From the IMG/VR virus record IMGVR_UViG_3300034107_000273, positions 1 through 64,000 of that record: a DNA stretch of 64,000 bases; one strand, 5' to 3'. How positions within the stretch are numbered: position 1 is the first letter of the stretch; the number at the start of each line of letters is the position of its first letter. Made by a program: the position numbers and the translations under genes. The notes below the pieces were generated by a model. That model saw only the letters and a list, made by a program, of their open reading frames with translations. It made no database searches and was not told where the DNA came from. This DNA comes from a virus. Shown here piece after piece: positions 2,841-21,800 of this stretch.

Positions 2841-4437
2841 TGAAGAATATCAGTATATTTCTGCAAGTTTAAATACACAAGAAGAAACGGTAAACTCTTT
2901 TAAAGAGCAAGACCCGTTTAATAAATCTTGGGACATGCTTAAAGACTTTTCTGGATTAGAACAAAACTTTCGTCGTAGAACAGCAAGAAACCTTAACAAG
3001 TTTGCAGATGTAAACAATGCAGCATATCTAGATTCTGCAAATGTTACACCATCAGGTGTGGATGCTTCATCAAAGCAGATCAATCCTGGAACGGTATACA
3101 GAAATGGTTATGGACTATTTGATGTAATTACTCCTCCATATAATCTATATGAACTTGCAAATTTTTATGATACATCTTTTGCTAACCACGCTGCTATTGA
3201 TGCAAAGGTTGCAAATATTGTTGGTCTTGGATATTCATTTGAAGCAACAGACCGCACCATGCTTTCTTTTGAGGGTAAGGAACAAAGCGCTATAGATAAA
3301 GCACGGAAGCGTATGGAAAGAATGAAGCTTGAAATGCGTGACTGGCTAGAAAACCTTAATGATGATGATTCATTTACAAAGACAATGGAAAAGGTTTACA
3401 CAGACGTTGAGTCTACTGGAAATGGATACCTTGAAATAGGTCGTACAGTAAATGGAGACATTGGATATGTTGGTCATATACCATCAACTACAATTCGTGT
3501 TCGCCGTTTGCGTGATGGATATATGCAGATCATTTCACAAAAGATTGTTTACTTTAGAAACTTTGGTGCAACCAATCCTAATCCAGTCACAGAAGATCCA
3601 CGTCCAAATGAGATTATTCATATCAAGGAGTATTCTCCACTAAACACTTTCTATGGAATTCCTGATATTATTGCAGCACTTCCTTCACTTATTGGTGATC
3701 AACTTGCATCACAATATAACATTGACTACTTTGAGAATAAGGCTGTTCCAAGATATGTCGTAACCTTAAAGGGCGCAAAGCTTTCTGGAGAAGCAGAGGA
3801 CAAGATGTTCCGCTTCTTGCAGACAGGCCTTAAGGCACAGTCTCATAGAACCCTTTATATTCCTCTTCCTGGAGATACTGACCAGAACAAGGTTGAGTTC
3901 AAAATGGAGCCAATTGAAAACGGAATACAAGATGGCTCATTCAAGGAATACCGCAAGCAAAATCGTGATGATATTCTTGTTGCTCATCAGGTGCCAATTT
4001 CAAAACTTGGCGGTACTGATTCAGCAGCAATCGCAGCATCAATTGCACAAGATAGAACATTTAAGGAACAGGTTTCACGTCCTGCACAAGGGCACTTAAA
4101 TAAAGTTATCAACAAGATCATTAAAGAAAAAACAGACATACTTGAGTTAAAGTTTAACGAACTTACACTTACAGATGAAATTACTCAATCACAAATTCTT
4201 GAGCGATATGTAAAGACTCAAGTTATGATGCCTAATGAGGCTCGTGAAGCAATTGGTCTTCCACAGCATCCAGGCGGAGATACTCCATTTGAAATGTCTC
4301 CAAGACAAGCAACAGATTCTAGAGCGAATGCATCTGGCAACAGAGCAAGAGATACTGAACGAAACAATAGCCAATCTGATGGACCTGCAACCACAACTGG
4401 ACGTAATCCACAGGGTGAAGGTAGAGCGTCTCAATAG
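2833..4437 (+). CDS. Portal protein
   Basis: GNGYLEIGR, HIPSTTIRVRR, NEIIHIKEYSPLNTFYGIPD, FENKAVP, MPNEAREAIGLP; located before the protease. Confidence 0.92.
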   Translation: MANEEYQYISASLNTQEETVNSFKEQDPFNKSWDMLKDFSGLEQNFRRRTARNLNKFADVNNAAYLDSANVTPSGVDASSKQINPGTVYRNGYGLFDVITPPYNLYELANFYDTSFANHAAIDAKVANIVGLGYSFEATDRTMLSFEGKEQSAIDKARKRMERMKLEMRDWLENLNDDDSFTKTMEKVYTDVESTGNGYLEIGRTVNGDIGYVGHIPSTTIRVRRLRDGYMQIISQKIVYFRNFGATNPNPVTEDPRPNEIIHIKEYSPLNTFYGIPDIIAALPSLIGDQLASQYNIDYFENKAVPRYVVTLKGAKLSGEAEDKMFRFLQTGLKAQSHRTLYIPLPGDTDQNKVEFKMEPIENGIQDGSFKEYRKQNRDDILVAHQVPISKLGGTDSAAIAASIAQDRTFKEQVSRPAQGHLNKVINKIIKEKTDILELKFNELTLTDEITQSQILERYVKTQVMMPNEAREAIGLPQHPGGDTPFEMSPRQATDSRANASGNRARDTERNNSQSDGPATTTGRNPQGEGRASQ

Positions 4438-10794: not shown

Positions 10795-11511
10795 ATGGCT
10801 ACAGAAGTATATAAAACAAAAAATATCTATTTATTTGATGGTACAGAGGTGCAAGTTATGCCTCTTAAAATTAAATATCTTAGAGAGTTTATGGATGTAT
10901 TTAATAACATAAAGAAAGCATCAAATGATGATGAATCAATGATGGTTTTATTAGAGTGTGCAAGAATTGCAATGAAACAATATTATCCTCAAATATCTAA
11001 AAACATAGAAGATCTTGAAGATAACATAGATTTGCCAACGGTGCATGAAATTTTAGAAATTGCTGCAAATATAAAAATAGGTGAAGACTCAGAAGAAAGT
11101 ATAAAGACTCAAGCACAAAGCAGCGAGGCTGGTCCAACATGGGAAGATTTTGATTTAGCAAAACTTGAATCAGAAGTATTTTTGCTGGGTATATGGAAAG
11201 ATTATAGTGAACTAGAAGCATCAATATCTTTATCTGAGCTATTATCAATAATAGCAAGTAAAAGAGAGTTAGACTTCCAAGAAAAGAAATTTTTTGCAGC
11301 AATTCAAGGTGTTGATTTAGAAGGCGGATCAGAACCTGAAAGAGGACAAAAGGAATGGGAAAACTTAAAGGCTAGAGTATTTAGTGGTGGTGCAACATCT
11401 GACAGCAAGGACATTTTAGCATTACAAGGACAAAATGCTAAAAATGTAGGATTTGGAATTGGCATGGGTCTTGATTATGAAGACGCAAGAGACCCCTCAG
11501 TCATGGTATAA
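10795..11511 (+). CDS. Tail assembly chaperone, long (GT-like) form
   Basis: Lies between the tail tube and TMP genes; N-terminal ~105 aa paralogous to 11539-11862, plus a C-terminal extension. Confidence 0.75.
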   Translation: MATEVYKTKNIYLFDGTEVQVMPLKIKYLREFMDVFNNIKKASNDDESMMVLLECARIAMKQYYPQISKNIEDLEDNIDLPTVHEILEIAANIKIGEDSEESIKTQAQSSEAGPTWEDFDLAKLESEVFLLGIWKDYSELEASISLSELLSIIASKRELDFQEKKFFAAIQGVDLEGGSEPERGQKEWENLKARVFSGGATSDSKDILALQGQNAKNVGFGIGMGLDYEDARDPSVMV

Positions 11512-11538: not shown

Positions 11539-11862
11539 ATGGCAACAACTGTGCATGAAGCGCATAAAGTCAAACTAATTGATGGTACAGAAATAACCTT
11601 AAGACCGCTTAAGATTTCACTTTTACGAAAGTTTATGAAAAAGTTTGAGGGTATTGCAGCAGTGGTAGATGATAACGATAAGTCAATCAATCTACTAATG
11701 GAATGTGTACTAATCGCAATGGAACAATATAAGCCAGAACTAGCAGCAGATATTTCTGCTCTTGAGGAAAATATTGACTTACCTACAGTATATGAAATTG
11801 TTGAAACTGCATCAGGAATTAAGCTTTCTGAAGCGTCATCAATTTTCAGTTCTGATGAGTAA
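11539..11862 (+). CDS. Tail assembly chaperone, short (G-like) form
   Basis: DGTEITLRPLKI...LEENIDLPTVYEI; own promoter TGGTATAAT 11504-11512 and SD GGGAGG. Confidence 0.75.
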   Translation: MATTVHEAHKVKLIDGTEITLRPLKISLLRKFMKKFEGIAAVVDDNDKSINLLMECVLIAMEQYKPELAADISALEENIDLPTVYEIVETASGIKLSEASSIFSSDE

Positions 11863-11888: not shown

Positions 11889-14800
11889 ATGGCTGATGTT
11901 CAGTCTAATATTAAAGTAAGTATTGATACTACTGACGCACTAGCCAGTATCAAAAACTTACAAAGACAGATATCAGCCTTTCACACATCAATGGCTAAGG
12001 GTGGTGCTGCTGCTAATGCAGTCACTAGCCAATTACAGCAAAACTTAATTAACTCAGTTAATGCTACAGGCAAGTTCTCTGCCCAAATGAGAACCATTAA
12101 AACAACAACTGAATCTTTTACAAGTTCTTTAGAAAAGAACAAGTTCTCCATGGGAGAATACTTTAGGTATGCTGGTGGTGCATCAAAAACTTTTGGTAGA
12201 TTATTTAAAACTGAGTTTGAAACAATAAATAAAGTAGCAAGAGAAAATGTAAAAGATCTTCAAACACAATACATCAAGATGGGCCGTGATGCAAACGGTG
12301 CAATGAAGGCAATTGCCGTAAGACCACTTTCTCTTGATATGAATAATCTTGCAACAAAAACTATGGTTGCTGCTCAAAAACAAGCAATCCTTAATCAGCT
12401 ATTAAAACAAGGATCAACCAATCTTTTAAACTTTGGTAAAAATACACAGTGGGCTGGTCGTCAGCTTATGGTTGGTTTTACAATACCACTTATGGCTCTT
12501 GGAGCTGCAGCATCAAAAACGTTCATGGATATGGAAACACAGGCTATACGCTTTAAAAAGGTTTATGGAGATTTATTTACTTCAACAACAGAAAGTACTG
12601 CAGCATTAGATGCAATAAAAAATCTTGGTAAAGAATTTACAAAGTATGGAATTGCAGTATCAGATACAGTTGGTCTTGCATCAGAAGCAGCTGCAGCAGG
12701 TTTTAAGGGTATTGACCTTCAAAGACAAACAGCAGCAGCAACAAGGCTTTCTATTTTGGGACAAGTTGAAAGTCAAAAAGCACTTGAAACTACCATTGCA
12801 TTACAAAATGCTTTTGCAATGTCTTCTGAAGATTTAGCAAAAAATATTGACTTTCTTAACGCAGTAGAAAACCAGACAGTTTTATCTCTTGATGATATGT
12901 CAACTGCTATTCCAAAAGCAGCTCCAGTTATTCAACAGCTTGGTGGAGATGTTAAAGATTTAGCATTCTTCATGGCTGCAATGAAAGAAGGTGGAATCAA
13001 CGCATCAGAAGGTGCTAACGCACTTAAGTCTGGTCTTGCTTCTATGATCAATCCTACTGCAAAAGCATCAGCAATGCTTCAAGGTTTTGGAATTAATATA
13101 AAGAAAATTGTTGTAGACAATAAGGGTGATTTAAAAAAGACTGTAACTGATTTTGCAACAGCATTAAATAAGCTTGATCCACTTAACAGAGCACAAGCAA
13201 TTGAGCAGATGTTTGGTAAATTCCAGTTTGCTCGTTTGTCTACACTTTTTGCAAACGTTACAAAAGAAGGTACTCAAGCAGCTCGTGTACTTGATTTAGC
13301 TGGGGCATCAATTCAAGAACTTGCAGCTCTATCTGAAAAAGAATTAGGACAAACATCAGAGTCTGCAATGAACAAGTTTAGGTCATCTATTGAACAGTTA
13401 AAGCTAGCTTTAGTACCAGTTGGAGAACAGTTCTTAAAGGTTATAACACCAATTGCTGAGTTTATTACAAAGATTTTAGATAAGTTCAATAGCCTTGGAG
13501 ATGGAACAAAAAAGGTTATTGTTGTATTAACAGCTGTAGTTGCTGGCCTTGGTCCAGTATTGCTTATGACATTTGGTTTGCTTATGAATGGACTTGCAAA
13601 TATAATTAAAGGTTTTACATTCTTAAAGTCTATATTTAATAAAGCAGGAAGAGCAACTGGAACTCTTGGCGATGAAGTCAAGTATATGACTACTGAACAG
13701 AGAAATGCTGCAGCTGTTGCATCTTCACTTGATCAAGTTCATAGAAAACTTGCACAAACATTTAGCTCTGAAGCAGCAGCAGTTGATGGACTAACAAGAG
13801 CCTATTACAGAGCAGTTGCAGCCCAATCACAATTTATGCCAATTAGAGTACCACTTCAAAGAGGCGCAGTTAAAAAGAGAGCAAAGGGAAAGCCTGCAAG
13901 AGTTGGCGGTACAGGAAATCAAGATACAGAATTAGCATTACTAATGCCTGGAGAAACAGTAATTCCAACTAAGATGAGCAAGAAGTATGCCTCAATTATT
14001 AATGGAATGATTTCTGACACTATTCCTGGCTATAAGGTTGGAAGAGATCCAGGATCTGGTTCGGCAGGAAGAGTTGGTAAAGTTATTCCAACAGTTCTAA
14101 GGCCTTACTCAGCAAACGTTAGTGCAACATCTGGTTTGGTTGATTTCTTAAATATTGATCCTAGCAATACTGCCGATGTTGCTAGCCTATACACTAAGCA
14201 AATTATGGACGCAGCAGGTGTTTCAGCAAAATCTGTAGTAACTGAAATTAACAAATGGCGACAAAACAATATGGCTGCTTTGCAGAAGGCTGCTAATGCA
14301 GTTAATGCTGGAGCAGATGCAACAACAGAGTTTGGACCATTAGTAGAAAAATTTAATGCAGATATGAAAAAAGCAGGGGGACCTTTTTCTCAGTTTGCAG
14401 CAACAGCAAAAAGAATGGTTCCAGAACTTTCAAAAGATTTAGTTCAAGCACAAACAAAAGCAAGAGAATTAGGCTTAAATATTAAAAGGGGTGCAGATGC
14501 TGTTAGACTGTCAGAAGCGCTACCTGGAAATATGATTGCTGGTGATTTATCAAAACCAGGTAATTTTTCAAAATTTTCAAAAATTAGAGCAGGAGCAGGT
14601 TCATTATTTGGAAAGACTCGTGGAATTAAATATATGGGAATTCCTAGATTTATGCTTCCTGATATGCATCCAAGTGAAAGAGCTTATAAGTTAGGAACTT
14701 CACAAGAACATATTAGCTCGTCTCTTCAACAAGAAGCACAAGCAATAAGTTTAAGAGCAGAAAGATTAGCAAGAAAGTCAACAAGTAAAGAATCTGCAGA

Positions 14801-17800
14801 CACTGGAGCCAAAGATGCAAAAGCATATAGTGACGCAGTTGAAAAGGGTACAGAAGATATTTATGTAAAAAGCAGAAAGCGTAAAAGTCCACATCGTTTA
14901 GTACCACAAGACGGAAGAGACGATGCACGAGCATATAACAGAGCAGTAGATAAAGAACTTAATAGGGGTGGTAAGAAACGTCGTGTTGCTTACAGACCAC
15001 AAGGTGCACCTGTTATTCCACCTGTTATTCCACCAGTTATTCCACCAGTTGTTCCACCAGTTATTCCACCTGTTATTCCAACAGATTATGTTCCAGATGA
15101 AGGACCAATGCATGGACCTAGAAAACCAACTAAATATGATAAAACAGTTGGAAATGCAGTAGGAAAATTTAGAGGTTCAAAGATTGCACGTCTTCCAAAA
15201 TCTGGAATGGGAATGGGATTATCTTCAGCTTTAATGATGGGATCGTACATGATTCCTGGCAAAACTGGAGAGATAGTTCAAAAAGTTTCTATGGCTGCTT
15301 TTGCACTTAGCAGTTTAACAACACCAATATCTTTACTTGTTAAAGCCTTTGGTGTTGCAGCAGTTGCACTAGGTTCTGGAATCGCAGCTGCAGTTGTAGG
15401 AATTGGTTTAGCAATGTATCTGTTTTCTAAGTCTTCAAAGAAATCAGCAGAAGATATTAAAGAAGCAGCTAAAAGAGAGTCAGAGGCAAGGATAGGAAGC
15501 GCTAGAGCGGTAGAACAATTTGCAAAAACATTTAATAAAGCACTTCCTAGTCAAAGAGAATTTAGTAGATCCAATAGCCAAAAAATTAAGGGAAGTGGTA
15601 CATTAGTAGATCAATATGCTAAAGATTATGCTACTGAAGGAAACATTTCTACACAAATTATTAATCAAGCAGCAAAAAAGGGTCAAGCTGAAGGCATAGA
15701 TGCAATAGCAATAGATGTTGCAAATAAAGCAGCAATTCTTGGATTGTCTCCAGAAGAAATCGCTGCAAATATAAAAGCAGCATCAAGGCTAATTGAGGCA
15801 GACGAAGTAAAGGTTACAGCTAAAATACAACAACTTCTAGCTCCAGGTGGTAAAGACATTCTTAAAGAACCACTAACCATTGATGCAAGACTAAATTATT
15901 TAAATAAGCAAAGCACACCTATAATTAAAAATATTGATAAAAGTATTAATGAAATATCTAAGATTAGGTTTGGTAAAGTAAATCCTCTTCCTGGATCTGA
16001 GACTTTTGATTATAAATCATTAGAATCAGCAGCTGGTGATTGGAGTTCAATTACAAATTCATGGAAGGGTGATTTCTGGGATAAAGCTTTAGCTGCTGGC
16101 AAAACATGGGTTATGCTTCAAAAGAATACCATTAAAAGTGCAATAAATCCATTACTAGGTGCTGGAAGCGCTCCAAGTATGGTTTTAAATTTCACAACTC
16201 CAAGTGCTGTAGAATCATATGATGCTGTACAAGAGCGTATACAAAATGCAAGCACAAGAGTTTCTATTGCATTTATGCAACAAAAAGAAGCACTTGCTCT
16301 TTTAAACGGACAGTATGCTGATGGTCAAATTTCAGAAGAAGAATATAACAAACAAAAACAAATTTCTAGCAACAATCTTAATAGTCTTGAAAAATCATCT
16401 ATTAAATTAGTAAAACAGTTAAATAGACTAGATGACAGCGGTGAGTCTGCAGCAAATGTAATCAAAGATTTAGCAGATCAATCTTTATCTGCTTTGAAAG
16501 CAGCCAATCCTGATAAATTTAATGAAATAACAAAAGCAATCTCAGCTTTACCTGATGATGCCGAAGTTGGTATATATATGGGGTACACAAGAGGCAGCTT
16601 GACACTTATGGATTTAGCAATAATTCCAGAAGTTCTAAAAAAGATAGAAGGCCAAGAATATTCAGCAGCTATAACAATAATTGCTACATCTGGTTTAAGT
16701 AATGAGGGAGTGATACTAAAAAAACTGAAAGCAGAAGCTGAACTTGCAAAATTACAACAAATGGCAGCAACTCGTCCTGGTCCTGATAGAGATCTAATTA
16801 GAGCAATATCATACTACCAATCTCAAATTACTGAATTTGATAGAATAATTAAAAAAATAGAAGGTGTAGATCCAGTTGGAAAACTAGATACAGACTTTAA
16901 TCCTTATCAAGATCTTGAGGATGGAACAGATGGTGCAAAAACCGCTTCAGAAGAATACGCTGATGTTCTTGAAAAAGAAATTGATGCTCTTAAAGCAAAG
17001 CGTGATGCACAAAAAGATGCAAACGATGAGGTACAACGAGAAATAGATTTAAAGATGAAGTTGCAAGACCTTGCCAATGAAGCAATAGAGGCAAAAATAT
17101 CTGGTAATTATTTAAAGGCTGCGATTCTTACCCAACAAGCACAAAACGTACAAATGAAGTTCAATCAAGAAACAGAATTAAAAAAGAAAGATGATCAAAT
17201 TGCCAAACTTGAAGCACGCCTTAGAGAAATTGAAAATGGAGCAGCATTAACTCGTGCTGAAAGTGAAAAGCTTAAAGCAACAAAAAAGCTTAAAAAAGCA
17301 AATGGTGGAGCAGTAAAGGGATTTAATACAGGCGGTAACGTACGTGGTGCAGGAACAGCGACCTCTGATTCTATCCCAGCATACCTTTCAAATGGTGAAT
17401 ATGTAATTAAAGCAGACTCTGTAAAGAAGTATGGAACAAAAACTTTTGATGCCCTTAATGCTGGTAAGTTTGCAGAAGGTGGAATTATACAAGGTTTTAG
17501 AACTGGTGGACTCAACAGGATTGTTAAAAGTGGTATATCTAGTGTAAGTAAACTAATTGGTTCAAAACTTTCTGGTTCAAAATCTGGAGTCAGCGCTTCA
17601 GTATTAACTTCAAGTCAGAAAAAGCAAGAGTGGATGGATGCCATGGTTGCTGCTGAAATTGCCAGGAACAAGGCTAGAAGAATACAGGAATCTTCATCTT
17701 ATGAAAACATAGTGTTTCCAGAAATAATGGATTACTCAGATTTTGCACATTCACAAAATTTTATGTCGTCATTAAATTCTGTAAACAAGGTAGAACATAT

Positions 17801-20800
17801 ACCAACTGGACAAAAAGGTTATCTAAAGTCTTTAAAAGAAATGACTCCACAAGAAGCAAGAAGAGAAGTTTTTGGTTCACTTTTTGCAAGACGAGCTGAT
17901 TTGCTTGCACCAACTAATACTGCTGTTAAATCATCAGTATTTGAGCCACCAAATGACATTTCAGTTTTTAGTGCAGCATTAGAAGATTTATCTCCAGGCT
18001 CAATTAGTGAGAGAACATTATATAATAAGTTACAACTAAATCTTACAAGAAAACCTGATGTACATGATTTATTGCCTGCAGATATTTACGCTGCCTTAGA
18101 TATGACTTCTGAAAAATCTTATAGAGATACAATATTATCTGCAATAGGATATTCAGATCTTCATGGAGGTAACTTATATCTAAATCCAAAAACAAAACAA
18201 TCTGGAGCAATTGATTTTGGTAGGATTGGAGACTCTGAATACTCAATGCCTATGTTTGCAACAGATAAATCCTTTGATAGTATAGTAAATAAGCAGTACC
18301 AAAAATATGTGCAACTACCAGATTCTGAAAGACCTGCATATTTAGAAGGGTTAAGAAGAGCAGAAGCAACGCTATCTAGCATAACAGATTCTGAGATTGC
18401 AGAAATGCTATTTCAATCTGGGTATGACAAAACAGATATTATATTACCAATATATCAAAAATATATAGATAACGTTAGAAGAGCAATTGCTTATAGATTA
18501 TCTGCTAAACCAATCCAAGGCTGGGATGAAAACATAGCAAAAATGCCTATTGATGAAGATTGGTTTAAAGAAACTGTTTATAAACAGACGACAGACTTTG
18601 CCAATGGTGGAGCTGTAAAAGGCTTTAGAACTGGTGGACTCAATAGAGTTGTCTCAGGTTTTGCTAAAAAAATAGCATTTTCAATTCCTAATAAAATAAA
18701 TCAAATTAAAAATTATTTAAAGGTAAGATCTCTTATCAAAGATGGAATGTATCATGGCTCACAACCAACTGGTTTACGTGGAGAAGAATACTTACAAGGT
18801 AAAAATATTTTAGAGGGTGCAGAAACCTATGATCCACATTATGGAATGGGCTTCTTTGGAACAAGTTCAAAATCAGAAGCAGAGATGTACGCAGCTGGTT
18901 ACAACTCACCTAACAATTGGTCAGAATCTTTTGGATCAATGAACAAGATTACAAAGGCTCCTTTTGGAAAATATGTAGACTTTACCAGGGGAACCAATTC
19001 AATTAAATGGCAAAATTACAAACTATATCAAGCATTAGGTATGGAAAAAGACGGGTACTTAGGAAACTATCTTACTGAAAACCTTGGCGATATTATGGCT
19101 GGCCAAAATGTAACTGGAAGCATAATGAATAGAATTAATGATGGTATGGTTCCAGGAGACATGGCTTCAGCAAAATGGTTAGCATGGGCAAAGCCTAAAG
19201 GAGTACATACAGAAGAATACATGGGAAGTTTTGCACCTAAAAAACCAGCCTCTCTTTTAGATAACTTAAAGTCTAAGTTCTCCATACTTAATAAGCCTAA
19301 AAAATATAATACAGGTGGACATGTACTTGGTGCAGGAACTGCAACCTCTGATTCTATTCCTGCAATGCTTTCAGATGGAGAGTATGTAATTAGAGCATCT
19401 TCTGTAAAGAAATACGGAACAGAAACATTTGATGCATTGAATGCTCAGAGATTTAGTGAAGGAAGTCCTGGTGGTGTTAGCCCTACCTCTGACCTTGGAA
19501 AACTTTCAAAAAAGCAAATGTTTGGTATTGGTGCCAGATCAGCAGCTGCATACCAAGCAATGGAAGAGCTAGAAAAAGCACTTTCATTAAGATGGGGTGC
19601 AAATAAAAATGCATCTGGATTCTCTAAATGGAGCAGAGCACTTGGTAGAGTTGGATTTAATGCATTACAAGGTGGTTTTTCAGGAGTATACACAAGTGCA
19701 AACCCTTTTGGTGCTCTTGTTGGTACAGCTTATGGTTTGGGAGAAGGAATAGTTGGTCTTGCTCAAAGCGGATCTGATTATGGAGTAAAGGGCGGAACGT
19801 ACTCTAACGTAAAAGGTTTTAATCCTAACGCACAATTAGACAGTATGAATCCTCTTGATTCATTAATTAATATGGGAATTTCTACATTAATTGGAGGTGG
19901 CCTTGGAGTTGGGTTCGGAAAAATTGCTGAAAAATTAGGGCCATTACTAAAACCAAAAGCTATTGAAATAGCAAATAAAATTCCAGAATCTATAAGAAAT
20001 AAGGCTACATTAAAGTTCAATGCTTTAAGACCAAAAATTGAACAGTTATCTCAACCATTTGGTAATCCATTTAAAAAGAAGCCTCCTGTAGCAAAAACAC
20101 CATCATTAATTGGAGCAGCAGCAAAAAGAGCTGCACAACAAACACCAGCATTTGGACAAGAATTATTGCAAGCAGGTGTTTGGAATACTTTAGGAAAAAT
20201 AAAAGGAATTAATAAATATAATTTACGTACAAGAATACCTAACCCATACATGATGCATGGATTAAAAAAAGGATTTGGTTATAGTTATAGAACTGGTGAA
20301 TCATACTATGATGAAGTTGTTAATACACAATATAAACGTGATAAGTTTGCAGCAGAACCAGACCCAGATGATCTATTTGCCAGTACATTTAAAGACAAAT
20401 TTTATTATGGATCGGAATCCTTTGGAGAACTTTTTGGCTTAATTGCAAAACGATCTAACGATAAAGTTTTACAACCTTTAGTAATGAATCCAATTAAGGG
20501 TGGAACTAGATTAATTAAGGCTGGATATGAATCCTCTAAAAATCTTTTTTCCAATATGAAAAACAATTTATCAAAAGACAATATAGATAACTTCCTATAC
20601 AGATATACACCATTTGGTACCATAAAAGCTTTACGTGCAGGGAAAAATATTAATCCACCACCTGGAGCTGACCCTTGGTCAACTTCTGTGTCTAAGATTC
20701 CAAAAGAGTACGACCCTTCATTGCGTGATTTATTTACAATGCCAACTTTCCACGGAGGTGCGCTTCCAGATACCCTACTTAATAGATTGAAGCCTGGAGA

Positions 20801-21800
20801 AATAAAAAGCCTGAAGGGAAACATAATGAATTTTGATTTATTTACAACAGTAGATAAAACAAAGGCATTAGAATACGCTGTAGGTAAAAATTCAGAAGAA
20901 GCAACAGTAGCGCTGCAGCAAACTATATGGAATAAACCAAAAAGTCTTTCAAAAATTTGGGATATGCGAGGAGGCAGACCATCTCTATGGTCACAAAATA
21001 AAAAAGGCTATGCTGCACTAGAAGATTACTATATCAATGTACTAGGACACTCAAAAGCAAAAGCTAGAGAGTTGTTAACTGGTGAACGAGTAGCAGGTAC
21101 AGCAATGACTCGTGGAGGTAGAGATAGAGTACAACATTATACTAATATAGAACTAAATGAGGCATTTAGTACAATGGGTAAAAAAGGTCCACAATGGGTC
21201 GTAGATACTATAGCTCATGCTGGTGGAGCTCTACAGGGAGGCTCACAACATTCAGTATTAACAACACTAGATCCTGAAAAACGTATTAAAGAAATTATAA
21301 ACATTTTGCCAAAAGATATATTAAAAATAGCTTTGACTCCAGATTATATTGGGGGTAACTATGAACAAACGATGACATTAGCACTTGAAAGATTTATACG
21401 TCAATATCAAAAATATGGAAAAATTTTTCCATTGTTAGGTGAAGGACAACTGACACCTAGCCATCTACCAAAAACAAAAGCATCAACCATGGCAGCATCT
21501 GGTGGATTAATAACACAGCGTGGATTAATAAACCAAAAATCAATTAGTGATATGTACAACCTTCCATCATTCGCTACTGGCATAGACTATCTTCCAAATG
21601 ATATGATTGCACAACTTCACCAAGGTGAGCGTGTTCTTACTAAGGAAGAAAACAAAACCTATTCATCTTCTGCCCCAACTACTAATATTATTAATATCAA
21701 CGGTAGCGATTTAAATAAAAAAGAAATAGCACAAGCCGTTATGGTAGAATTAGATAGAGCACAAAAGAAAAACAACAAGACGAATATGGTGGGGAGATAA
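11889..21800 (+). CDS. Tape measure protein (3303 aa) carrying inserted kinase-like and ADP-ribosyltransferase-like domains
   Basis: TP901-like N-terminal core (GINASEGANALKSGL, AIEQMFGK), hydrophobic segments, position after the chaperones; repeated SDSIPA linkers; DLHGGN/DFG and YHG/FHG modules. Confidence 0.92.
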   Translation: MADVQSNIKVSIDTTDALASIKNLQRQISAFHTSMAKGGAAANAVTSQLQQNLINSVNATGKFSAQMRTIKTTTESFTSSLEKNKFSMGEYFRYAGGASKTFGRLFKTEFETINKVARENVKDLQTQYIKMGRDANGAMKAIAVRPLSLDMNNLATKTMVAAQKQAILNQLLKQGSTNLLNFGKNTQWAGRQLMVGFTIPLMALGAAASKTFMDMETQAIRFKKVYGDLFTSTTESTAALDAIKNLGKEFTKYGIAVSDTVGLASEAAAAGFKGIDLQRQTAAATRLSILGQVESQKALETTIALQNAFAMSSEDLAKNIDFLNAVENQTVLSLDDMSTAIPKAAPVIQQLGGDVKDLAFFMAAMKEGGINASEGANALKSGLASMINPTAKASAMLQGFGINIKKIVVDNKGDLKKTVTDFATALNKLDPLNRAQAIEQMFGKFQFARLSTLFANVTKEGTQAARVLDLAGASIQELAALSEKELGQTSESAMNKFRSSIEQLKLALVPVGEQFLKVITPIAEFITKILDKFNSLGDGTKKVIVVLTAVVAGLGPVLLMTFGLLMNGLANIIKGFTFLKSIFNKAGRATGTLGDEVKYMTTEQRNAAAVASSLDQVHRKLAQTFSSEAAAVDGLTRAYYRAVAAQSQFMPIRVPLQRGAVKKRAKGKPARVGGTGNQDTELALLMPGETVIPTKMSKKYASIINGMISDTIPGYKVGRDPGSGSAGRVGKVIPTVLRPYSANVSATSGLVDFLNIDPSNTADVASLYTKQIMDAAGVSAKSVVTEINKWRQNNMAALQKAANAVNAGADATTEFGPLVEKFNADMKKAGGPFSQFAATAKRMVPELSKDLVQAQTKARELGLNIKRGADAVRLSEALPGNMIAGDLSKPGNFSKFSKIRAGAGSLFGKTRGIKYMGIPRFMLPDMHPSERAYKLGTSQEHISSSLQQEAQAISLRAERLARKSTSKESADTGAKDAKAYSDAVEKGTEDIYVKSRKRKSPHRLVPQDGRDDARAYNRAVDKELNRGGKKRRVAYRPQGAPVIPPVIPPVIPPVVPPVIPPVIPTDYVPDEGPMHGPRKPTKYDKTVGNAVGKFRGSKIARLPKSGMGMGLSSALMMGSYMIPGKTGEIVQKVSMAAFALSSLTTPISLLVKAFGVAAVALGSGIAAAVVGIGLAMYLFSKSSKKSAEDIKEAAKRESEARIGSARAVEQFAKTFNKALPSQREFSRSNSQKIKGSGTLVDQYAKDYATEGNISTQIINQAAKKGQAEGIDAIAIDVANKAAILGLSPEEIAANIKAASRLIEADEVKVTAKIQQLLAPGGKDILKEPLTIDARLNYLNKQSTPIIKNIDKSINEISKIRFGKVNPLPGSETFDYKSLESAAGDWSSITNSWKGDFWDKALAAGKTWVMLQKNTIKSAINPLLGAGSAPSMVLNFTTPSAVESYDAVQERIQNASTRVSIAFMQQKEALALLNGQYADGQISEEEYNKQKQISSNNLNSLEKSSIKLVKQLNRLDDSGESAANVIKDLADQSLSALKAANPDKFNEITKAISALPDDAEVGIYMGYTRGSLTLMDLAIIPEVLKKIEGQEYSAAITIIATSGLSNEGVILKKLKAEAELAKLQQMAATRPGPDRDLIRAISYYQSQITEFDRIIKKIEGVDPVGKLDTDFNPYQDLEDGTDGAKTASEEYADVLEKEIDALKAKRDAQKDANDEVQREIDLKMKLQDLANEAIEAKISGNYLKAAILTQQAQNVQMKFNQETELKKKDDQIAKLEARLREIENGAALTRAESEKLKATKKLKKANGGAVKGFNTGGNVRGAGTATSDSIPAYLSNGEYVIKADSVKKYGTKTFDALNAGKFAEGGIIQGFRTGGLNRIVKSGISSVSKLIGSKLSGSKSGVSASVLTSSQKKQEWMDAMVAAEIARNKARRIQESSSYENIVFPEIMDYSDFAHSQNFMSSLNSVNKVEHIPTGQKGYLKSLKEMTPQEARREVFGSLFARRADLLAPTNTAVKSSVFEPPNDISVFSAALEDLSPGSISERTLYNKLQLNLTRKPDVHDLLPADIYAALDMTSEKSYRDTILSAIGYSDLHGGNLYLNPKTKQSGAIDFGRIGDSEYSMPMFATDKSFDSIVNKQYQKYVQLPDSERPAYLEGLRRAEATLSSITDSEIAEMLFQSGYDKTDIILPIYQKYIDNVRRAIAYRLSAKPIQGWDENIAKMPIDEDWFKETVYKQTTDFANGGAVKGFRTGGLNRVVSGFAKKIAFSIPNKINQIKNYLKVRSLIKDGMYHGSQPTGLRGEEYLQGKNILEGAETYDPHYGMGFFGTSSKSEAEMYAAGYNSPNNWSESFGSMNKITKAPFGKYVDFTRGTNSIKWQNYKLYQALGMEKDGYLGNYLTENLGDIMAGQNVTGSIMNRINDGMVPGDMASAKWLAWAKPKGVHTEEYMGSFAPKKPASLLDNLKSKFSILNKPKKYNTGGHVLGAGTATSDSIPAMLSDGEYVIRASSVKKYGTETFDALNAQRFSEGSPGGVSPTSDLGKLSKKQMFGIGARSAAAYQAMEELEKALSLRWGANKNASGFSKWSRALGRVGFNALQGGFSGVYTSANPFGALVGTAYGLGEGIVGLAQSGSDYGVKGGTYSNVKGFNPNAQLDSMNPLDSLINMGISTLIGGGLGVGFGKIAEKLGPLLKPKAIEIANKIPESIRNKATLKFNALRPKIEQLSQPFGNPFKKKPPVAKTPSLIGAAAKRAAQQTPAFGQELLQAGVWNTLGKIKGINKYNLRTRIPNPYMMHGLKKGFGYSYRTGESYYDEVVNTQYKRDKFAAEPDPDDLFASTFKDKFYYGSESFGELFGLIAKRSNDKVLQPLVMNPIKGGTRLIKAGYESSKNLFSNMKNNLSKDNIDNFLYRYTPFGTIKALRAGKNINPPPGADPWSTSVSKIPKEYDPSLRDLFTMPTFHGGALPDTLLNRLKPGEIKSLKGNIMNFDLFTTVDKTKALEYAVGKNSEEATVALQQTIWNKPKSLSKIWDMRGGRPSLWSQNKKGYAALEDYYINVLGHSKAKARELLTGERVAGTAMTRGGRDRVQHYTNIELNEAFSTMGKKGPQWVVDTIAHAGGALQGGSQHSVLTTLDPEKRIKEIINILPKDILKIALTPDYIGGNYEQTMTLALERFIRQYQKYGKIFPLLGEGQLTPSHLPKTKASTMAASGGLITQRGLINQKSISDMYNLPSFATGIDYLPNDMIAQLHQGERVLTKEENKTYSSSAPTTNIININGSDLNKKEIAQAVMVELDRAQKKNNKTNMVGR
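15009..15080 (+). repeat. Six 12-nt tandem repeats encoding PV(I/V)P
   Basis: ccwgttrttcca x6 inside the TMP gene. Confidence 0.9.
17292..17520 (+). repeat. TMP linker copy (ANGG-FNTGG-GAGTATSDSIPAYLSNGEYVI-FAEGG-FRTGG)
   Basis: Near-identical copy at 19305-19475; partial or diverged copies at 13878-14043, 18597-18647 and 21490-21660. Confidence 0.85.
19305..19475 (+). repeat. TMP linker copy (YNTGG-GAGTATSDSIPAMLSDGEYVI-FSEG)
   Basis: Clear protein and DNA similarity to 17322-17480. Confidence 0.85.

Follow-up and report, generated by a model that had tools for sequence, protein, structure and literature searches.

Exchangeable kinase-like and ADP-ribosyltransferase-fold cassettes at the C-terminal end of a tape measure protein from a lake phage

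The stretch of DNA analyzed here (the window) comprises 64,000 nucleotides, positions 1 to 64,000 of the IMG/VR virus record IMGVR_UViG_3300034107_000273, which is 107,956 bp long, of lake origin, from an uncultured virus, and has ~35% G+C. Here, we report that its tape measure protein (TMP), encoded at 11889..21800 on the + strand (as are all features given below) in a single uninterrupted frame of 3,303 amino acids (aa) with Pfam and PHROG TMP matches, belongs to a family in which close relatives exchange C-terminal cassettes at copies of a repeated joint motif, i.e., a constant chassis carries swappable cargo. This is strongly supported by the comparison of related loci. We further consider it fairly probable that the TMP C-terminus serves as a cassette rack, by which the tail would bring ready-made enzymes into the host.

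For the comparison, IMG/VR was scanned with the first 665 residues of the TMP. The scan gave 569 relatives, and 80 loci with a TMP core identity of 67 to 100% were retrieved and compared. Complete TMPs (n = 61) range from 1,691 to 3,983 aa in length, and one more, spanning two overlapping loci, has 4,557 aa; the whole span from 1,691 to 4,557 aa is already covered by relatives with a core identity of 81 to 100%. The shortest TMPs (1,691–1,797 aa) consist of the helical ruler, followed by a single copy of the joint motif and a terminal segment of ~40 aa, with no cargo at all. In the longer TMPs, additional sequence is placed between the motif and the terminal segment and is interspersed with more motif copies. 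The cassettes of the window TMP recur in other TMPs, in which their order and number differ; for example, the ADP-ribosyltransferase (ART) cassette precedes the kinase cassette in locus L012, and locus L004 has two kinase cassettes.

The exchange is seen most directly when the window is aligned with locus L003, whose TMP core is 99.8% identical in protein to that of the window. Nucleotide identity is 98.5% over the core (aa 1–716), 88% over the ruler (aa 969–1888), 74% over the kinase cassette (aa ~1934–2227), 89% over the ART cassette together with a glycine-rich module (aa ~2238–2729), and 97% at the end (aa 3211–3303), and there is no nucleotide similarity at all at a variable site behind the core (site 1, aa 717–968) and in the last cassette (aa 2730–3210). 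These switches in identity coincide with copies of the joint motif. The TMP lengths, the reordered and duplicated cassettes, and the breakpoints at the joints thus give strong support to the original prediction, made from the sequence of the window alone, that core and linkers are constant while the cargo varies. Loci L004 and L083 turned out to be parts of one contig, IMGVR_UViG_3300032220_000267, whose TMP core is 96% identical to the window in nucleotides and 98% in protein; its TMP is the one of 4,557 aa and holds two kinase-like cassettes and a further cassette that is 73–75% identical to the last one of the window.

Copies of the joint motif were located with a linker hidden Markov model (HMM) built from the window TMP's own family. 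Two full copies are present, L2 (aa 1806–1881, motif aa 1806–1869; 17304..17531) and L3 (aa 2467–2537, motif aa 2467–2531; 19287..19499), each with an E-value of 1e-31. L2 reads [FY]xxGG, GxGTxTSDSIPA..GEYVI..FDALN, and then FAEGG, and the two copies are identical at 42/58 aa (72%) and 127/174 nucleotides (73%). A degenerate copy (aa 658–718; 13860..14042; linker HMM E 1e-3) lies at the end of the core, with a nucleotide breakpoint at aa ~716. A half joint (aa 2237–2257; 18597..18659) joins the first and last parts of a full one, and nucleotide breakpoints fall at aa 2227–2269. A C-terminal variant (aa ~3222–3262; 21552..21674), seen by eye and missed by the linker HMM, stands ahead of the last 40 residues. 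The earlier statement that each cassette is bracketed by the linker therefore holds in spirit when half, degenerate, and variant copies are counted in, whereas the full motif is present only twice.

In a tblastn search of 50,697 phage records, the C-terminal 1,500 residues found matches through the joint motif alone. The motif was matched in 186 of these records, mostly from Gordonia and Mycobacterium phages. Two copies are found in the TMP of mycobacteriophage Douge (8zdo_S) and one in the solved TMP 8rk3_A, in unresolved parts of both structures. The Bromden TMP, nearly the size of the Douge TMP, has the motif at the same positions, and its two copies bracket an above-threshold match to NlpC/P60; the motif therefore already fences known cargo in cultured actinophages.

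Likenesses of the joint to two well-studied TMPs concern the place where these proteins are cleaved. T5 pb2 is cut after R1127, and the 92-residue pb2C remains in the tail tip (PMC10038345); by eye, AEGG stands directly after this cut and a GE-x-x-x-E-V-V stretch ~15 residues on. Lambda gpH loses a C-terminal piece of ~14 kDa from "the glycine-rich region," with neither the site nor the protease known (PMC12617516). Residues 704–787 of gpH, just behind its Gly-rich stretch, match the joint profile (E 1.4e-3), and the order FATGG, GEFVF, YATGG in gpH is that of FNTGG, GEYVI, FAEGG in the window, with a similar terminal pattern afterward. We conclude from these sequence likenesses that the joint probably corresponds to the conserved start of the hub-docking C-terminal TMP fragment. 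By analogy, the joint copies in the window TMP may also be cut.

The cassette behind L2 (aa 1886–2236; 17544..18596) is kinase-like, with K1980, E1993, D2090-x-H-x-x-N2095, and D2109-F-G as its catalytic signature. K1980 (in GYLK), E1993 (in REVFG), D2090, H2092, N2095, and the D2109-F-G triad are invariant in seven aligned family members down to 25% identity. The family profile finds the TMP fragments P0037–P0039 at E ~1e-53, and these fragments pass the Pfam APH model (PF01636) with 25.5–26.5 bits (cut-off 23.2); the window cassette itself aligns to P0039 in BLAST over 269 residues, both motifs included (E 4e-12). A sub-threshold match to ABC1 covers the catalytic loop. In a protein atlas, the nearest neighbors are clusters of ~290 aa without names (0.96), followed by clusters with PI3_PI4_kinase (38% of members) and HipA_2 (21%) (0.92), which we treat as leads only. 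The alignment profile gave nothing meaningful against PDB sequences. That this cassette is a kinase-superfamily domain of the APH/ABC1 type, with an apparently intact active site, is well supported by the complete signature and by the BLAST link to relatives passing the APH model, and the kinase-like domain of the original prediction is borne out.

The next cassette (aa 2262–2466; 18672..19286) is recognized through its predicted structure. Sequence methods (Pfam, NCBIfam, and an alignment profile against PDB sequences) gave no recognition. An AlphaFold model based on 28 sequences from viral and metagenome contigs, down to 41% identity (a metagenome scan contributed three ART loci), reached a pLDDT of 82.4 and a pTM of 0.82; with eight close sequences, the pLDDT was 36. 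In the Foldseek search of this model against PDB, about 45 of the 50 listed rows are ART-fold proteins or proteins with the ART-like RES/NAD+-toxin fold, among them 6kyf (prob 0.84), diphtheria toxin and its homologs, ParT, NatT, MbcT, Xre-RES, tankyrases, PARP1, and Arr, with no match at E ≤ 0.001. We take 6kyf to be the anti-CRISPR ADP-ribosyltransferase AcrIF11. The VIA aligner, run against 48,161 representative chains, placed ART-fold or RES/NAD+-toxin-fold proteins in about 19 of its top 20 rows (Z 5.0–7.4). The fold is assigned because these match lists are so uniform, not because of any single score.

The best VIA match (Z 7.4) is to residues 1419–1610 of PDB 9k3a_B, a domain of a podophage ejection protein in the cyanophage A4 pre-ejectosome, which may, to judge from this structural match, be another virion-delivered ART-fold domain; the cyanophage A4 paper makes no mention of an ART domain, and we regard the match as a lead only. 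Among predicted viral structures in BFVD, the model matched proteins named ART-PolyVal-like, PolyVal ADP-ribosyltransferase, MuF fusion, and N4-type virion RNA polymerase (best E 4.9e-4), those named ART-PolyVal-like or PolyVal ART at E 1.8e-3 to 8e-2 with prob up to 0.9. In the atlas clusters nearest to the cassette, 22–24% of members carry PF18760. Candidates for the catalytic His, aromatic residue, and Glu of the H-Y-E clade of ARTs can be named: H2289 (in H-G-S) is nearly invariant, F2322 (in G-F-F-G-T) is invariant, residue 2323 is F or Y and is followed by a helix, and E2443 is nearly invariant, each on a predicted strand. The spacing from the histidine to the aromatic residue is 33 residues, presumably the same as between H21 and Y54 of diphtheria toxin. 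The cassette is under purifying selection (dN/dS 0.14–0.23). Taken together, the predicted fold supports the assignment of aa 2262–2466 as an ADP-ribosyltransferase-fold domain, probably ART-PolyVal-like. The first ART-like domain that had been proposed from the sequence is thus upheld by a confident model with structural matches almost all of ART fold, and the refuting case named beforehand, segments with no kinase or ART fold, does not apply to the kinase-like cassette or to this one.

Behind L3 follow two further modules without any family match in Pfam or NCBIfam. The first (aa 2546–2730; 19524..20078) is glycine-rich (15.7% Gly) and glycine-zipper-like; it recurs in eight relatives and stands directly behind a joint in all five that were checked, in agreement with the glycine-zipper region noted earlier. 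The second is a large and rare last cassette of 485 aa (aa 2731–3215; 20079..21533). Of the clusters that represent 1.8 billion proteins, only seven are related to it, and all seven are TMPs or TMP fragments; among the fetched loci, it is present only in the L004/L083 contig. A possible ART-like core lies around H2955 and F2982-DLFTT. In hhalign, the cassette matches the profile of the first ART weakly (P 0.002, probability 16%) over 124 columns, in which the HG and aromatic-helix motifs are aligned; no conserved Glu candidate was found, as LDPE is lost in P0007 and P0008. A second ART, as the original prediction had it, is therefore no more than a possibility.

The cargo in relatives is mostly without a recognizable family. 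As a separate observation, HExxH in a zincin-like context occurs in seven distinct cargo segments (relatives L006–L009, L011, L012, L013, L022, L028, and L037, and fragment P0006), with sub-threshold Pfam matches to Peptidase_M90 (0.035), M10 (0.06), and Zincin_1 (0.13); judged by sequence, these segments may be processing peptidases of the kind typical of polyvalent proteins.

How such a protein could have arisen and how it could work may be pictured as follows. The ancestral form, with ~1,700 aa as in the shortest relatives, would have consisted of an N-terminal core followed by membrane segments, the helical ruler, a single glycine-flanked motif of ~65 aa, and a hub plug of ~40 aa. The phage of the window carries ~1,350 aa of cargo between motif and plug, fenced by more copies or halves of the motif. 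The repeated motif would act as a recombination joint and possibly also as a maturation-cleavage or hub-docking element, the latter because it begins the cleaved C-terminal fragments gpHC of lambda and pb2C of T5. Lying distally in the tail lumen, the cargo would be first out at ejection and would reach the cytoplasm, as we infer because ATP and NAD+ are available only there. In the cytoplasm, the enzymes would modify host or defense proteins ahead of phage gene expression. The original prediction had proposed just such an injectable, swappable chassis for host takeover or anti-defense before phage transcription; its swappable chassis is strongly supported, while injection and early action on the host are inferred from the need for ATP and NAD+, from the conserved catalytic residues, and from the precedents of Thermus phage P23-45 gp96 (PMC10770324) and the polyvalent proteins (PMC5512222). 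We would also put forward, more tentatively, a wider version: the joint may be a general TMP maturation site, each cassette may be freed inside the tail, and the lumen may thus be a magazine of diversifying anti-defense or takeover enzymes that is reloaded by recombination at the joints, i.e., a polymorphic-effector system within the tape measure, which many actinophage-type TMPs with the motif would share.

Several points weigh against delivery of takeover enzymes by this TMP. The resemblance to T5 consists of a few residues seen by eye, with the linker HMM missing T5 pb2, and the match to lambda gpH is weak (4.4 bits at the E-value given above). The kinase cassette of the window stays below every Pfam threshold; its ABC1 (PF03109) match has E 0.11 and 12 bits, against a cut-off of 22.9. 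The ART model reaches modest single structural scores (E 0.018 for its best Foldseek match in PDB, Z 7.4 for its best VIA match), the ART-PolyVal Pfam family PF18760 gave no match at E ≤ 10 in 14 ART family members or in the window cassette, and the conserved E2443 is replaced in relative P0009. No protease was found in the window TMP, which has no HExxH and no peptidase or MuF match. Some relatives carry peptidoglycan-binding cargo, i.e., OmpA (L012, L013, P0004) and LysM (L033, P0030), which points to the wall; because of these, not all cargo can be for host takeover. In mycobacteriophage TM4, a deletion of 114 embedded residues made the tail ~20 nm shorter (PMC1796659); if this rule held here, the tails of close relatives would differ about twofold, which seems physically awkward, and therefore, either the tail lengths differ greatly or the cargo is packed differently. 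Finally, dN/dS values of 0.7–1.5 in the kinase cassette, the glycine-rich module, and the 485-aa cassette are also expected under relaxed constraint.

The peptidoglycan-binding cargo leads to the explanation that survives best among the others, in which the cassettes are an envelope-penetration toolkit that works in wall or membrane and clears the way for the DNA, as do the peptidoglycan hydrolase motifs of mycobacteriophage TMPs and T5 pb2C, and are not takeover enzymes for the cytoplasm. OmpA-like and LysM cargo in the relatives, the NlpC/P60 hydrolase bracketed by the same joint motif in Bromden, the membrane-active look of the window's glycine-rich module, and the wall-directed TM4 mt3 and T5 pb2C would all fit with it. 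However, the two recognizable enzymes of the window depend on ATP and NAD+, found only inside the cytoplasm, Pfam and NCBIfam searches found no hydrolase or wall-binding domain in the window TMP, and the nearest structural neighbors of the ART are intracellular enzymes modifying proteins or nucleic acids and the ARTs of phage polyvalent proteins. We hold this explanation to be rather unlikely.

The substitution rates bear on a different explanation, namely that the extra sequence is mainly structural, a hypervariable filler for adjusting tail length or tip architecture, with the enzyme-like domains as decaying, non-catalytic relics. Between the window and the L004/L083 contig, dS is 0.024–0.185 across segments; dN is 0.009 in the core, 0.030 in the kinase cassette, 0.037 in the glycine-rich module, and 0.158 in the last cassette. 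The resulting dN/dS, which in close pairs rests on few substitutions, is 0.07 in the core and 0.85–1.5 in the kinase cassette, the glycine-rich module, and the last cassette (0.85 in the last cassette). Ratios near 1 in these three modules, the absence of a recognizable family in most of the relatives' cargo, and the translation of cargo length into tail length in TM4 are what a filler would predict. Against it, numerous independent contigs keep their reading frames free of stops for as many as 4,557 codons, the catalytic residues of the kinase are invariant even between members sharing a quarter of their residues, the ART cassette combines purifying selection with a confident fold, and the same cassettes recur in different contexts. 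The pattern of dN/dS fits with either relaxed constraint or diversifying selection; by way of argument, we favor the latter because of the frames that are open over thousands of codons and the invariant active site of the kinase. That most cassettes evolve fast while their catalytic residues stay fixed suggests an arms race, and we regard a purely structural role as improbable. That the long reading frame is an artifact of assembly or gene calling, a chimeric contig fusing unrelated genes in frame, may come to mind for a metagenome-assembled virus record, but it is dismissed here as having next to no probability, as the same architecture is found in dozens of contigs from different samples, including the near-identical L003 and L051, and in protein fragments from independent sources.

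The rest of the protein and its surroundings are those of an ordinary TMP. The PhageMin_Tail domain (aa 241–443; 12609..13217; PF10145, E 1.7e-25, passing the Pfam cut-off) forms part of a conserved core that takes up the N-terminus as far as aa ~716. Matches to about ten PHROG TMP families fall in the first ~700 aa, with phrog_10030 as the best (E 1.5e-101). On the 5′ side, the gene is preceded by an Ig-domain tail protein and two small phrog_10504 paralogs, and on the 3′ side, it is followed by a phrog_10359 minor tail protein. Because of the TMP profile matches and these tail-gene neighbors, 11889–21800 is a genuine TMP gene within a tail module, and we take the virus to be a freshwater one of the siphophage type. 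The two phrog_10504 paralogs, 10795–11511 (with an additional C-terminal phrog_10474 part) and 11539–11862, occupy the position expected of the tail assembly chaperones G and GT and are, from position alone, putative tail chaperones.

Behind the core, variable site 1 (aa 719–968; 14043..14792) has a helix-rich composition and no family match in Pfam and NCBIfam searches. It is replaced in near-identical relatives, with no nucleotide similarity to L003 or L004 between flanks that are 96–98% identical; the unassigned cassette which the original prediction had placed here is thus a variable, replaced site, although its start at 14044 is one base out of frame and 14043 is in frame. Then follow a perfect-looking, proline-rich PPVIP repeat (aa 1041–1065; 15009..15083) and, just behind it, two adjacent hydrophobic segments (aa 1133–1167; 15285..15389) that look transmembrane-like in a hydropathy scan, and from there, judged by composition, a helix-rich ruler up to aa ~1800. 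At the other end, the terminal plug of ~40 aa (21675..21797) is conserved in relatives with and without cargo, in line with the typical TMP C-terminus claimed earlier. The equivalent final 35–42 residues sit in the baseplate hub of Douge and T5, and lambda gpH shares both the motif and the terminal pattern with the C-terminus of the window TMP. From earlier work, TMPs have their C-terminus in the tail-tip hub and exit ahead of the DNA (PMC10038345, PMC12617516).

A stretch of 70 nucleotides within the TMP gene (12435–12507; nucleotides 547–619 of the gene) is 87–91% identical to the TMP genes of Streptomyces phages of ~130 kb (Kenrey, Annadreamy, Jay2Jay, and others). We rejected these phages as relatives, since the megablast match is confined to this conserved TMP stretch and the genomes are otherwise unrelated in DNA. 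Against 185,579 species genomes, the TMP core gave a single match (L117, CAYQOJ010000012.1; 63% identity), on a 31.7-kb contig in a metagenome-assembled genome (MAG) labeled uncultured Methylococcus; Methylococcus was not adopted as host, the contig being probably a phage contig binned into this MAG.

Among published cases, the closest one is gp96 of Thermus phage P23-45 (also in P74-26, G20c, and TSP4), a TMP of 5,002 aa with a fused virion RNA polymerase (Chaban et al. 2024, PMC10770324), the enzyme being active in the cell and seen by ChIP 5 min after infection (PMC10770324). Both are giant TMPs with an enzyme that acts, or in the window would act, in the cytoplasm after entering with the DNA, and in both cases relatives without the enzyme part exist. 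The P23-45 protein differs in having a single N-terminal RNA polymerase in place of the window's C-terminal kinase/ART array, with no repeated joint or shuffling described, and in being demonstrated by experiment, while the window case is known from sequence and predicted structure. The closest concept is the polyvalent protein, in which phages and conjugative elements combine ARTs and kinases for delivery with DNA (Iyer et al. 2017, PMC5512222). As in these, several unrelated effector-type domains of variable composition share one huge polypeptide, in the window a kinase, an ART, and at least two further modules on 3,303 aa, and the window's ART is closest in structure to ART-PolyVal proteins. 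Polyvalent proteins, however, typically have MuF or other head or conjugation anchors and zincin peptidases, whereas the chassis in the window is a TMP with no HExxH, and Iyer et al. 2017 (PMC5512222) do not mention tape measure proteins once.

The TMPs of mycobacteriophages (TM4 mt3, Piuri and Hatfull 2006, PMC1796659; NlpC/P60 of the Bromden/Douge type) likewise have an enzymatic, non-ruler segment embedded, in Bromden even between two joint copies; this is a single wall-directed hydrolase with no cassette exchange at joints reported, in contrast to the multi-cassette kinase/ART array of the window. Lambda gpH*/gpHC and T5 pb2*/pb2C (PMC12617516, PMC10038345) have a Gly-rich stretch, a GE[FY]V motif, and a hub plug in the same order as in the window, but they have a single copy of the motif, followed by hardly any cargo or none, and the likeness of T5 is short and seen by eye.

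As an analogy only, polymorphic toxin systems such as Rhs and CdiA also pair a constant part for delivery with hypervariable modules at the C-terminus that can be exchanged and are set off by a conserved motif. They use another delivery machine; in the window, no immunity genes were seen, the modules stand in series, and a constant plug follows the variable part. A preprint on the tape measure and cargo of extracellular contractile injection systems (eCIS) was considered as a precedent and rejected, since loading of the lumen is by signal peptide there and not by TMP fusion. A full-text literature search found no paper joining TMPs with ART domains. Compared with the known cases, what is new is the C-terminal rack of multiple cassettes, the reuse of a gpHC/pb2C-type motif as a joint, and kinase and ART cargo on a TMP.

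TMPs are usually viewed as rulers with at most a wall hydrolase; here, in a large and abundant lineage of lake phages with 569 IMG/VR relatives, close relatives differ mainly in the exchangeable cassettes of the TMP, a kinase-like and an ART-fold enzyme among them. If the cargo is delivered, this would be a second general route for pre-made enzymes, beside head-packaged polyvalent and ejection proteins. Some very long TMPs would then be explained without very long rulers, the unexplained cleavage of the lambda and T5 TMPs would gain a function, and phage tails could be loaded with proteins through a natural, motif-delimited slot. The cassettes without a family would in that case be a reservoir of novel host-directed or anti-defense activities.

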